Positions 30,595 through 36,976 of a stretch of 64,000 nt of DNA are shown one piece after another. Below the pieces are notes generated by a model that was given only the letters and a program-made list of their open reading frames with translations, ran no database searches and was not told where the DNA came from. The DNA comes from Escherichia coli. GTDB lineage: Bacteria; Pseudomonadota; Gammaproteobacteria; Enterobacterales; Enterobacteriaceae. The DNA lies in the NCBI RefSeq assembly GCF_050920415.1, contig NZ_CP169309.1; one strand, 5' to 3'. The translations under genes and the position numbers were made by a program. The first letter of the stretch is position 1, and the number at the start of each line of letters is the position of its first letter.

Positions 30595-30662
30595 TACAAC
30601 GGGCGTGTTATATGCCCGTTCAATACTTAATAGGTATAGCGTTAACATATTCTTGATAGCAT
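30595..30662. repeat. Diverged duplicate of the icd 3' end plus terminator hairpin (icdC-like remnant); left boundary of the islet
   Basis: CAACGGGCGTGTTATATGCCCGTT (26/27 identical to the hairpin at 36911..36934) followed by TTAACATATTCTTGATAGCAT, which matches the last codons of icd. Confidence 0.65.
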
Positions 30663-31229
30663 GTATTGCATACCTCCAGCCTTAGAGTTATCTCCGGCTA
30701 ACTCCACCAAACATGGCTGCACACAGCCAGATAAGAACGCTTGCGCGCATCTGGATATCATACCGCTGCTGGAACTGTTTCTTAATCATCCTACCTTATT
30801 AGACCTATTCGATACTGGCCATTATGAAGGACGCAAAGTAAGCGCTTTTTATGCGTTTTTGCTGAGTTATCATCACGTTACCTTAATATTATCAGGAACG
30901 AGTTAACGCTGCTCATAACGGTCAAACCGATACTATAAAGCCCAATAATTGAAACCTTTTCATCATGTCAGGAAGATAGTCATCCTTATGATCTTTATAT
31001 AAAAAAGCCAACCATGGGGTTGGCAAAGTGGCACAAACCAGCATAAAAGCTATGCTTTGTTTACAAATCTTCTTTGAATTAAATATATATCGTCCTGACT
31101 AAACAGAACTAAAACGGAATGAATTATTTAATCATGTTACTAAATTTCATTTTGTTTAGCCTCTGTTGAGATCCCTTGTTTTAAATTTCATTTAGATAAA
31201 ATTCTTAATTAAATCCTTGGGAGTCAATT

Positions 31230-31490
31230 ATGTCTATGCAAAGTCAAGGAATGAACTTTGAAATGAACCTATACGCATATTTGAATAAATATGATAGTCG
31301 GCTTTCAGAAGAAAAACTTGCAATTGATAAGGCAGTTAGAGATTTATATCTTTGCAACGAACACGTGGATAACAAGAGCATTATACTGAAATTGCTCTCA
31401 TTTTTATCATCTGCTGATGACATTGTTGAAAAAGATATTATCAGGAATGCTTTGGAAGTGGTGCTTCTTTTTACATTAGACGATATTTAA
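31230..31490 (+). CDS. AriR/YmgB-family small protein (paralog)
   Basis: C-terminal half HVDNKSIILKLLSFLSSADDIVEKDIIRNALEVVLLFTLDDI aligns with AriR at 26467..26733 ([42 protein letters not shown]). Confidence 0.7.
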   Translation: MSMQSQGMNFEMNLYAYLNKYDSRLSEEKLAIDKAVRDLYLCNEHVDNKSIILKLLSFLSSADDIVEKDIIRNALEVVLLFTLDDI

Positions 31491-31737
31491 GTCATCTCAG
31501 GAGTTTTAATACACGAAGAGTGCCCGGATACTAGCGATTATATTCATATTTAATTATTAGTGCGGGGAAAGAGATTATGCATTGGCATATTTCTCTAACG
31601 TCCGTGATAGAAAAAAACTTTAAATATAAATAAAGAACAAACCACCTTTGCATTCAACCTCATCTGAGCTGACTATAGTACAAATTATATTGATATTCTT
31701 TATCAACATCATTGGAACAGAAGAATAAGGCGAAGAA

Positions 31738-32061
31738 ATGAAGTGTATAGTAATTGATACTGTAATACAACCTTCGTGTGGTATATATTTTTCAGTCATA
31801 TGGAGCGATATGAAAATGATCATTTGGTATCGTTCAAATATATTTCTCCCACCTGGCAGCATATTTACAGTTATTAAGTCAGGTATTATACTCGAGGATA
31901 AAGAATATCCGATCAGTATTTTTAACGTGGCGCTATTCAACAAAAATTTATGGAATTTAATCAAAAATAGTCAAGAGTGTCCTACAGAATCAAACAAAAT
32001 TACGAATAAATGCATGCATAAGCATTGCATTATGCAAATATGTCCACATGGTCTCAAGTAA
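31738..32061 (+). CDS. iraM: Anti-adaptor protein IraM-like (RssB inhibitor family)
   Basis: 107 aa; MKCIVIDTVIQPSCGIYFSVIWSDMKMIIWYRSNIFLPPGSIF... resembles IraM/YcgW by recall. Confidence 0.75.
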   Translation: MKCIVIDTVIQPSCGIYFSVIWSDMKMIIWYRSNIFLPPGSIFTVIKSGIILEDKEYPISIFNVALFNKNLWNLIKNSQECPTESNKITNKCMHKHCIMQICPHGLK

Positions 32062-34269: not shown

Positions 34270-35204
34270 TTATAACCACCTTACTGCAATGTCATGATTA
34301 TACTGTATAAATTTTAACTCTTCTTAGATCTTACTTCACTGGTCCTTATGAAACAATCAGCAAAATGAATCTTATTATAACACTGTTCGGTTATGTATTG
34401 TTGAGCCTTCCCGCTGGGCCTGCATCATTACAAGTCGCTCCCTATGGGGCTTTGTCGAATAAATAATTTTTCGGTAAGTATCCCCCTGAGCAGGTTGTAT
34501 CTTCAGGCAGTATGAACACTTTCTGGCATACCTACCTTCGTCATTATGTTCAGCGTATGCACCATGACCAAAGCCTCTGCAACCGGCCTATCATAATCTA
34601 GCAGCATCAGAGAACCTCAGAATAACTGTTTTACCCTGTTCATTGCCGTTTCCGCTATTGAGCGACGATTGTAATCTTTTGTCCATTTTCACCGGGAATT
34701 ACCCTCGGTCAATCGCTGATACGCGACTGCACAGTTACGGTCGGCATACTCACCGGGCCAGTAACCCGCTCCTTTTTGGGGTGGGATGAGCGCGCTGATT
34801 TTCACACGGCGCAGCTGCTCGTAACAGAGCCGAGAGGCGTAAACTCCGTCTGCTGCTGTCCTGATTTTTTGATGGGTTTGCCGGATTAATCCGGCTACAC
34901 CTCTACATCCGTTACGCTGAATGCTGAGGTCGCCCTTGGGAAGAAGGCATTGCTGACTTATACCAATCCGAAATCACCTCCTCGAGCAACCAGACAGGGA
35001 GGGGCCTCGGTTGATAAGAGCTCTGTTATTGATGTGCCAGTTGGTGATTCTAACTTTTGCTTTGTAACGGGACGAGCCGTGTTGGCAGATGATGTGTGGT
35101 CTGATCCTTAAACTCAGTAAAAGTACGATTTATTCAAAAAAGCCCCTCCACTATGATTTCGATTTAAGGGGCTGATGATTATGTAACGCGAATTTACCGG
35201 ATCC

Positions 35205-36581
35205 TTACGAACCTTTCTTTATCCTGCTCTTGCCCCTTTCGGTAAGCCCATTCTCTGTCATGTATTTTCTGGCAGTGAATATATTAATGCTGTGGTCAGT
35301 ACAAAACCCCTTAACACCCTTGATCTTTTCCCGCTGAACCTGGGGCATCTTCGACCATTCCCGGACGAGATTTTTGGTAACTCTGTTCCATTTCTCTGGT
35401 TTGTTCAGCTTCGCTCGGCCCACCCAGGTTAATCCGTCCTTGCTCAAATTCAGGTAATGACGTGCTGTGCACGGCCGGATGTTGTGGCTCTCACACCACT
35501 TATTGAAATCGACGTTGCGCCGCTCATCCGAGGTCATCATCGACCATTTCCGGATAACCTCGTAGGGAATGGGGAGCTTTATGGCAACTTTCGACCTTAC
35601 CCTGACGCGACGTTGCGGGACTGTCTCATGTTTCGCACTCAGGTTTTCTTCCGACAGTGCGGAGAGGGAGGACCTGAAATCAAGTGATTCTGGCTGGTTA
35701 TGTGACAACAGTGTCGCGGCAATGGCGTGAAATCGGGCACTATCCACACTTCCACAGACCTTCACACTGCCATCACTGACATCAATATTCACTAATTTGC
35801 TATTACTAATAGTTTTCGTGAAGGTGATGGTGTGGCCGGAAAAACAGAAACTAAACTTGAACGGCTCAGTGAAAAGCTTAGTGAGTTGCGGGTCAGCCCC
35901 CACCTCCGCCCGGTACGTAAACAGTGCATTCGTCATGGCAACTACCAGTTCGTTAGCCTCGTCCGTATTCTCGATGATTAAATTTTTCATCTGATTCAGA
36001 ATTTTCTCGCTGCTCTGGAGCAGCAGCGGGGGCCGGGGCAATGTCGCGCCCATGGCGAGGTTGGAGTAGCATGGCGTTAGCATGTAATTCACTCCTTCCC
36101 GTTGTTTTTCTTCTGTGATAGAAGGGCTGAAATCATCTATTCCGGGCTGGCGACTGCGTGAGACCAGTGTTGTGACAAAGGCGTTAAACAGATAACAATC
36201 AGCATAGCCACAGGCACTCCTCCCATCCTTGCTGACCATAATATTCACGCAATTGTCCCCATTAAAATCCATATGCGTGTTGGTGAAGGTAATGGTGTGG
36301 TCGGAAAAACTAAAACTGAACGACTCAGGAATTTGCAGACCACGCGCCCTAGGCATGTCTGGATTATCCGGCAGTTTAGCCATCTGATTTGGCTGCAGTG
36401 CGGTCGCCATGACATCCGCCAGTTCGTTAATCTGGTCAGAACTCATCGTGCTACAGTCCGTATTTCTGTGAATTAAATTTATCATCTCCCGCAGATGAGT
36501 CCTGCAACTTTCCTGGCTCTGCAGGAGCTGGGACAGTGTCACAGCCGCGTTAATGCGGCATGGTGTTACCATATAATACAA
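35205..36581 (-). CDS. Hypothetical protein with two tandem N-terminal units of roughly 170 aa and two C-terminal HTH-like repeats of roughly 50 aa
   Basis: 458-aa ORF. Internal units share [15 protein letters not shown] / [18 protein letters not shown]-terminal repeats share W...[16 protein letters not shown] / W...[17 protein letters not shown]. No family recognised. Confidence 0.55.
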
Positions 36582-36908
36582 TCCTTTTTCTCAGGGGGGT
36601 TGATATTCCGGATCGTGCCGTGTTTGCCCACGGCTCCCCCTGGAGAGCTGCAGACCTGTTTATTTAACTCGCACAGCGCCGGGGCCTGTCAGCAAACAGG
36701 GAGCATAACCGTCGTGCCATTAAACGCCAGACGGGAGATCATTATTATTTTATTAATACAGATCCGTTGCATTCCGGTCTTTACCGCAGTTTAAAAGAAA
36801 AGAGAATAGGGACTTAGGCAGTAGAGCAGTCATTGGACAGACCACACTACCCCAAACTAGCAGGGGAGTTTTGATAAAATTTTGATAACCGTTAGCAGGC
36901 TAACAAAA

Positions 36909-36976
36909 CACAACGGGCGTGTTATACGCCCGTTACAGTTTTTAACACATGCAGAAATTACATATTCTTGATGATC
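36909..36976. repeat. icd terminator hairpin plus icd 3' end; right-hand copy of the islet-flanking direct repeat
   Basis: CAACGGGCGTGTTATACGCCCGTT hairpin just downstream of the icd stop; matches 30595..30662. Confidence 0.65.

Follow-up and report, generated by a model that had tools for sequence, protein, structure and literature searches.

A 6.3-kb interval at the 3' end of icd in Escherichia coli: a probable composite of regulatory and prophage-derived layers

In an Escherichia coli chromosome (assembly GCF_050920415.1, contig NZ_CP169309.1), a 6.3-kb interval (positions 30,595-36,976) lies beside the 3' end of icd, the attachment site of phage 21 and e14; the whole stretch of 64,000 nt that was analysed is called the window. 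On balance, we favour the view that this interval is a composite of three layers built up at this attachment hot spot: a pair of regulatory genes, ariR' and iraM, a segment bearing ycgX and a decayed second copy of the icd terminator region, and a rare 4.8-kb block with prophage-derived pieces. An initial reading made from the letters alone (the sequence-only reading) had regarded the interval as a decayed or alternative integrated element bounded by two repeats. Its inventory of the cargo was accurate: an AriR paralog, IraM, a TrkH-family transporter (TrkG) and an open reading frame (ORF) of 458 amino acids (aa) are present, and no integrase, excisionase, lit or pin was found among the ORFs or the RefSeq annotation of positions 30,400-37,100.

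The two direct repeats were found at the places first noticed and are longer than described at first. In a gapped alignment of 30,553-30,657 with 36,868-36,972, 77 of 107 columns were identical and 4 were gap columns; the local score of 82 compares with 23.6 ± 2.8 in 200 shuffles (maximum 33.5). The ungapped core (30,592-30,620 and 36,906-36,934) was identical at 27 of 29 positions, and the hairpins, AACGGGCGTGTTATATGCCCGTT at 30,598-30,620 in copy 1 and AACGGGCGTGTTATACGCCCGTT at 36,912-36,934 in copy 2, are the best-conserved part of the repeat (22/23). They are followed by TTAACATATTCTTGAT (30,641-30,657) in copy 1 and TTACATATTCTTGAT (36,958-36,972) in copy 2, the latter being the reverse complement of the final codons of icd (I-K-N-M-stop). 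In the orientation of icd, both copies run from the 15-nt icd end (ATCAAGAATATGTAA at the gene itself and ATCAAGAATATGTTAA at copy 1) through a 20-23-nt spacer and the hairpin (AACGGGCG...CGCCCGTT) to a "tail" of about 45 nt, so the repeats do carry the icd terminator hairpin and the last icd codons, as had been proposed.

Copy 2 (36,868-36,972, minus strand) comprises the working icd stop region, the spacer, a bidirectional terminator hairpin, which scored as an intrinsic terminator on both strands, and an e14-type tail. From the icd 3' end through the spacer to the hairpin, it carries the native allele, as does the empty-site strain L011. Copy 1 (30,553-30,657, minus strand) is a decayed duplicate of the stop region, spacer, hairpin and tail, and the loop of its hairpin is larger than the terminator-scan criteria allow. 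Counterparts of copy 1 are present in K-12 and LHM10-1, where they are further decayed. Past the 15 nt, the similarity of copy 1 to icd scored 11 against 8.97 ± 1.29, a score reached by 64 of 500 shuffles. Longer icd homology toward the 165-nt att core was not significant in copy 1 of the window or in the K-12 copy, and a "CATCAC" extension in K-12-type copies proved to be islet sequence.

Among 5,426 complete E. coli genomes, the full 6.3-kb form was found in 18 and internal islet sequence in 3,982. In approximately 73% of the genomes, including K-12, the same far copy (copy 1) bounds a short ariR'-iraM islet of 0.9-1.5 kb; the two repeats are consequently not the ends of one 6.3-kb element, as the sequence-only reading had it. 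Because the far repeat is common to most E. coli, it is an old feature. In K-12, the order is icdC, hairpin, iraM, ymgK, decayed second hairpin, tail, ymgL and ycgX. LHM10-1, GF4-3 and UTME-7 hold a 1.5-kb islet with the order ycgX, copy 1, an intact AriR-family gene, iraM, hairpin and icd. In strains with neither part (seven examples), the ycgX-ymgL-hairpin stretch is joined to icd or icdC: in AH19B041, ycgX, ymgL, tail and hairpin run directly into icd with no islet, and in the islet-free FDAARGOS_1373 and GN02323 the hairpin is joined to the icdC of a sitABCD prophage that is of phage 21 type. CFT073 has also been reported to lack iraM (PMC4045071). The interval is accessory rather than universal core sequence, as had been anticipated, and the extra 4.8 kb is an indel inside the K-12-type islet, placed after the 3' flank of iraM and before the icd hairpin. 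A third, decayed "tail" had been supposed to lie between iraM and the hairpin of K-12-type genomes, but its similarity was not significant.

A different arrangement was found in another Escherichia lineage. A homolog of ariR' with 85% identity was detected in four contigs from four samples, of which the two long ones, L021 and L022 (ERR3970404 and ERR3970605), have flanking core genes (hrpA to cybB, and ydcI) that are about 89% identical to those of E. coli. Positions 5,716-10,857 of L021 hold ymgC-ariR-ymgA-ycgZ-bluF-bluR-ariR'-iraM between cybB and ydcI, a region that in E. coli holds ydcA, hokB and trg instead; the genes called in L022 were the same. In L021, the equivalent of window position 29,922 is joined directly to that of 30,786-30,795 (approximately), and the cluster has no counterpart of 29,923-30,785 (ycgX and copy 1) and no icd hairpin. 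The short contigs L023 and L024 show the same bluR-to-ariR' junction. Since L021 joins bluR directly to ariR', the ariR'-iraM pair looks like a part of the low-GC ymg/blu cluster and not the cargo of an element inserted in icd, and the ycgX segment with its icd-derived end looks like the inserted piece. That the "stress-connector module" was left behind as element cargo, as first suggested, is probably incorrect in view of this contiguity with bluR in the absence of icd sequence. The ariR'-iraM region was 75-80% identical in all three pairs among the window, K-12 and L021 types, and bluF-bluR was about 90% identical in each.

The outer block (32,099-36,911), limited to the same 18 genomes, is a mosaic of five pieces. 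The piece next to iraM (32,099-32,744) is 646 bp of unrecognised DNA restricted to these genomes, in which no icd-derived remnant or displaced icd copy was found. A 41-43-nt patch in it (32,656-32,698), about 93% identical to a sequence by ymgJ in thousands of E. coli genomes, was its sole match elsewhere. The following stretch (32,745-34,442) showed approximately 85-90% nucleotide identity to Rac-type prophages and induced phages, trkG included. The trkG gene itself (32,794-34,251, minus strand) encodes a Trk-family K+ transporter of the Rac/lambdoid-prophage type (TIGR00933, 406.2 bits against a cut-off of 331 over the full length; PHROG 1916); the TrkH equivalog scored 448 against its cut-off of 866, as expected for TrkG. 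By homology only, the protein would be expected to add a K+ uptake channel. Upstream lie the last 74 nt of an Rz (spanin) gene (34,369-34,442, minus strand), cut at the boundary of an insertion sequence (IS); window 34,202-34,442 aligned with positions 7,459-7,719 of L007, whose spanin gene spans 7,646-8,110. Both Rz' and trkG are co-oriented with icd, as the late genes of an icd-sited prophage would be.

The Rac-type homology ends exactly at a degenerate element of the IS903 family (IS5) at 34,444-35,147, two pieces of which share 77-81% identity with IS903B. Terminal inverted repeats can be recognised at both ends, about 380 bp are deleted internally, and the flanking 9-mers are similar, not identical; the transposase was annotated as a pseudogene by the Prokaryotic Genome Annotation Pipeline (PGAP). 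This remnant is the "degenerate GC-rich patch" of the sequence-only reading, which was right about its degeneracy; its GC content (48.6%) does not exceed that of the window (48.9%). The description of the whole interval as AT-rich needs a similar amendment. The interval averages 41.3% GC, and the iraM part (34.1%) and the trkG part (36.9%) are AT-rich indeed, but the IS903-like element and the cassette of the 458-aa gene (49.1%) are not.

That cassette (35,205-36,804, minus strand) comprises an orphan gene and its upstream region. The ORF occupies 35,205-36,581, and PGAP placed the start at 36,572, giving 455 aa. For the N-terminal two thirds of the gene and the upstream region, a paralog with 75-80% identity lies between fadH and ygjK in many E. 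coli, and the C-terminal third alone departs from these paralogs. The C-terminus showed a weak match to phrog_11707 (E = 2.8e-9), among phage families of unknown function. The ORF also contains an internal duplication, with DNA repeats about 470 nt apart and 39% identity between residues 162-302 and the N-terminal part. The protein matched no family of Pfam, NCBIfam or PADLOC, its homologs were confined to E. coli, and its AlphaFold model had a mean predicted local distance difference test score (pLDDT) of 43.7.

The last piece (36,810-36,911) is an attL (P') arm of the e14 family, marked by two copies of the repeat TTTTGATAA and by a palindrome of the form CTACCCCAAA...GGGG. It could be aligned with the e14 arms of K-12 and NCTC9038; its tail was identical to the K-12 e14 arm at 41 of 43 positions, a score that none of 1,000 shuffles reached. 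In vB_EcoM-689R6, the arm has three TTTTGATAA repeats, recognised by eye. Prophages of this family hold variable, often defence-type, cargo between int and the arm, such as ymfD, ymfE and lit in K-12, an AAA ATPase in NCTC9038 and a DUF262 protein in vB_EcoM-689R6, and the 458-aa gene occupies this slot beside the arm. No intact progenitor of the 4.8-kb block was found in the complete E. coli genomes, in 50,697 phage records or in IMG/VR, where the 458-aa protein served as the query. Sub-threshold matches to the Rfam family STnc150 (RF01402) were recorded at window 36,864-36,942 (plus strand, 36.8 bits) and at L011 4,941-5,079 (33 bits). With a gathering threshold of 60 bits, the window match falls short of membership of this small RNA (sRNA) family; it spans model positions 186-263 only, which on the strand opposite icd take in the tail and the icd hairpin. 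The consensus of STnc150, a Salmonella Hfq-binding sRNA, holds TTTTGATAA repeats, like the e14 arm.

Integration of phage 21 and e14 into icd, with attL, attR and icdC, is attributed to Hill et al. (1989) and Wang et al. (1997) in PMC12803456 and PMC6379469. According to these sources (PMC6379469; references in PMC12803456), the recombination core of both lies 165 nt from the icd stop, and both bring a replacement 3' end and terminator. The icdC of K-12 and the icd copy of phage 21 each measured 165 nt; the homology of phage 21 to the host stops at the hairpin edge, and that of e14 runs on into the arm. The interval resembles these systems in its target gene, in that a duplicated icd 3' end and terminator marks the far side of foreign DNA, and in the presence of both occupied and empty sites in the population. 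As in e14, an e14-type arm stands directly beside the icd terminator, and the cargo is placed where e14-family prophages hold variable genes. The far copy in the window has 15 nt of icd, not the last 165 nt that e14 and phage 21 duplicate, so it is not the e14-type signature for which it had been taken, and it belongs to an older, widespread structure and not to the 4.8-kb block. No tyrosine integrase or excisionase is present. In addition, the hairpin and the icd 3' end by the arm are the chromosomal allele, as in L011, unlike the three e14-family examples, which all carry AACGGGAG...CTCCCGTT at this place in attL.

Compared with the ycgX-ymgL-ymgK-iraM-icdC region of K-12, the window shares ycgX, a decayed hairpin copy, a PhoP-box-like motif, iraM, the icd terminator and, in part, ariR'. 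In K-12, ariR' is lost except for its first codons (ymgK), about 200 nt by copy 1 are lost, the 4.8-kb block is missing, e14 is additionally inserted in icd, and the sequence is only 74-80% identical to that of the window. At the nucleotide level, the window copy of trkG is about 90% identical to the moron of the Rac prophage and of Rac-like lambdoid phages, and this similarity takes in the intergenic region and reaches the end of the upstream Rz gene, but the window copy is an isolated fragment at icd, cut by the IS903-family element and stripped of the other prophage genes. As in cryptic or "grounded" prophages (PMC6379469), mobility and lysis functions are lost and self-contained accessory genes are kept; unlike in the nine cryptic prophages of K-12, decay has gone much further and is layered on a non-phage regulatory island.

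Based on these data, the following history is proposed. Layer 1 (about 30,786-32,098) would be the connector gene pair ariR'-iraM, belonging with ymgC-ariR-ymgA-ycgZ-bluF-bluR and mostly abutting the icd terminator. Layer 2 (29,923-30,785), the ycgX segment with copy 1, would be an old insertion or a product of rearrangement; it would have brought the decaying second icd stop, terminator and tail, creating a direct repeat around ariR'-iraM. Copy 1 itself was most likely produced in a single step, when two forms of the chromosome recombined unequally or illegitimately, or through an earlier prophage integration with subsequent deletions. For layer 3 (32,099-36,911), an e14-family prophage may have entered icd in a rare lineage by integrase-mediated recombination, bringing its own arm. 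This prophage and a Rac-like lambdoid fragment would then have been reduced by deletions and the insertion of an IS903-family element, leaving the arm, the 458-aa orphan in the attL cargo slot, Rz'-trkG and the 646 bp of unrecognised DNA. The native icd 3' end and hairpin beside an e14-type arm may be due to gene conversion or recombination; conversion from a displaced icd copy that has since been deleted would explain this hybrid attL. A decayed element that left cargo behind, as the sequence-only reading imagined, is thus an apt description for the outer 4.8 kb, with its e14-type arm and Rz'-trkG, and not for the 6.3 kb as a whole.

Several points weigh against the three-layer history. The 4.8-kb block may be old and have been lost once, in the ancestor of the K-12-type haplotype. 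Because ariR'-iraM is no more than 75-80% identical between the types, simple descent within E. coli is doubtful. The gene order of L021 could itself be secondary, an E. coli-like order having lost the ycgX segment by deletion and been transferred. The occurrence of IraM homologs as morons of lambdoid phages also fits a phage origin for layer 1. Moreover, no displaced copy of the icd 3' end that could be assigned to layer 3 was found, and since the hairpin by the e14-type arm is native, not of e14 type, an extra event is required.

The main competitor, which we consider rather unlikely, is that every layer, ariR'-iraM included, was left by successive prophages of the phage 21/e14 type that integrated at the icd core. 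Each integration would have pushed the older remnant and a displaced icd 3' end outward, copy 1 would be a truncated icdC, and iraM would be a stranded moron. IraM indeed belongs to PHROG 4407, and in lambdoid phages and an Escherichia albertii prophage it lies between Q and the lysis genes; iraM is opposite to icd and trkG co-oriented with it, as expected of such prophages. Also in keeping with it, the homology of phage 21 to the host ends at the hairpin edge, just as the unit duplicated in K-12-type genomes does, phages carry ybcV-type paralogs of ycgX, and empty sites exist. It is harder to reconcile with 15 nt of icd in copy 1 instead of 165, with the L021 cluster, where ariR'-iraM follows bluR without ycgX or icd sequence, and with the AriR paralog, which lacks a PHROG match and for which relatives were found only in E. 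coli-like chromosomes. The order from icd, with trkG before iraM, does not suit one prophage either; on this ground, the idea that iraM and trkG are simply collinear with one lambdoid prophage was rejected.

Far less probable is a single decayed e14-like or alternative 6.3-kb element in which the repeats would be attL and attR and the four genes would all be cargo. Direct repeats bracket the entire interval, an e14-type arm sits at its icd-proximal end, and the interval is rare, all of which such an element would explain. In our view, this model is contradicted by the K-12-type and LHM10-1-type islets, because most E. coli hold the far repeat and ariR'-iraM without the other 4.8 kb. Furthermore, relatives differ from piece to piece (an e14 arm, a Rac-type fragment, IS903, a paralog between fadH and ygjK), copy 1 is devoid of the att core region, and no progenitor turned up in the genome, phage and IMG/VR searches. 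Still less credible is a common terminator or sequence of the repetitive extragenic palindromic (REP) type, the similarity of which would say nothing about rearrangement. That the hairpin is the best-conserved portion and terminator-like on both strands would suit it, but the similarity extends from the 15-nt end of icd across the spacer to 45 nt past the hairpin. In the window and about 250 kb of other loci compared, the hairpin pattern was confined to icd-linked positions, and a median of one place per genome matched the copy-2 region; many copies at unrelated loci, which are typical of REP elements, were not seen. Therefore, the repeat is not a dispersed repeat, and the sequence-only reading rightly regarded it as a duplication of the icd stop codon and terminator.

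The inner part of the interval (30,658-32,098) holds the two regulatory genes. ariR' (31,230-31,490, plus strand) encodes an 86-aa paralog of the YmgB/AriR family, named as such by PGAP and 40% identical to AriR (E = 4e-16). PF10798 was recorded for members of its cluster that are 97-99% identical, no PHROG match was obtained for its product, and its relatives were found solely in E. coli-like chromosomes. The iraM allele (31,738-32,061, plus strand) encodes a 107-aa protein of the RssB anti-adaptor family (NCBIfam NF007393, 144.5 bits against a cut-off of 121; PHROG 4407, E = 2.7e-50), with amino-acid identities of 72% to K-12 IraM and 64% to a lambdoid-phage homolog. IraM is induced by Mg2+ starvation via PhoQ/PhoP and blocks RssB (10.1101/2023.01.07.523045). 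By homology only, the window IraM would be expected to bind RssB and to spare RpoS from ClpXP in Mg2+ starvation; this RssB/RpoS function has been established for K-12 IraM only (10.1101/2023.01.07.523045), and the homolog IraL, 59% identical, behaves differently from IraM (PMC4045071). A search for IraM in one genome per species yielded three loci only, which says little on outgroups because the peptide patterns miss the MEYIVIDT-type allele.

A PhoP-box-like direct repeat, TGTTTAGCCTCTGTTGA (TGTTTA-N5-TGTTGA; 31,153-31,169, plus strand), lies about 60 nt upstream of ariR'. The motif had three matches in 64 kb against 0.08 expected, and its position is conserved in LHM10-1, GF4-3, K-12 and L021. 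A terminator scan found no terminator-like site on the plus strand between ariR' and iraM. A GC-rich hairpin with a T-run that is terminator-like on both strands follows iraM (32,112-32,131, plus strand) and occupies the position of the icd hairpin in K-12-type genomes. The two genes are probably co-transcribed and may form one PhoP-dependent operon. In K-12, ymgK (L002 18,261-18,305) aligned with the first 14 or so codons of ariR', and a deletion of about 440 bp removes the rest of the gene; judging from this alignment, YmgK is the 5' remnant of an AriR-family paralog. A more tentative suggestion, which we consider possible and no better than that, is that ariR'-iraM is an ancestral bicistronic connector operon under PhoP control, of which K-12 keeps only iraM and the 14-codon ymgK stump. 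If so, an AriR-family partner could link Mg2+ starvation or acid stress to RpoS and Rcs, and the icd terminator region would be a site where small regulators have repeatedly been assembled in Escherichia and swapped to and from lambdoid phages. Another terminator-like hairpin with a T-run (31,007-31,024, minus strand) is present in all islet haplotypes, with no minus-strand gene upstream.

The interval illustrates how a classic phage attachment site comes to hold host regulators: iraM, an AriR paralog, trkG and an orphan gene would have been stranded by an essential metabolic gene through integration, gene conversion, deletion and the activity of an IS. The 105-bp direct repeats would allow the loss of everything between them by homologous recombination. 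For work on RpoS, the iraM alleles are about 28% apart in protein sequence, and some strains have before iraM an intact AriR-family gene that K-12 has lost; given this divergence and this loss, results from K-12 may not transfer to other strains. What is known of the integration of e14 or phage 21 is unchanged by the interval. The attachment site, IraM, TrkG and the decay of cryptic prophages are already known, and all genes here are annotated in RefSeq. In the literature searched, we found no earlier description of this rare haplotype, of the common iraM islet bracketed by a duplicated icd terminator, of ymgK as the stump of an AriR paralog or of an alternative chromosomal home of the ymg/blu-iraM cluster.

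Positions 30,400-37,100 were matched at 100% identity by MFDS1022581 (NZ_CP169399.1). Before the interval, pdeG, ymgC, ariR, ymgA and ycgZ lie on the minus strand and bluF, bluR and ycgX on the plus strand, the RefSeq annotation agreeing with the ORF list. The ycgX segment (29,923-30,785, plus strand) is made up of ycgX (29,995-30,399, plus strand), a ymgL-like stretch, copy 1 and 128 nt of unrecognised origin; the 5' region of ycgX is about 71% identical to ybcV-type genes in lambdoid phages. Beyond the interval, icd (36,958-38,208, minus strand) is intact, and its 416-aa product has the same protein accession as in the empty-site strain AH19B041; it is followed by rluE, nudJ, mnmA, hflD and purB. 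Compared with K-12, the flanking core was 95-98% identical and the ymg/blu region 89-95%. A two-gene insert (STM2901 family and DUF1493) occupies the icd/rluE gap in some E. coli (L015, L016 and L017, at about 8,077-8,862) and is absent from this gap in the window.

Tail genes of a lambdoid prophage (49,701-64,000), broken by IS2, are inserted at the potB 3' end, and homology to K-12 ends at position 49,701. An island at potB has been reported to carry iraL in CFT073 (PMC4045071); no IraM homolog was found in the part of the potB prophage that lies within the window. In the minE/ymgG gap (17,747-22,429), an intact autotransporter of 1,560 aa with AIDA repeats is encoded where K-12 has the pseudogene ycgH.

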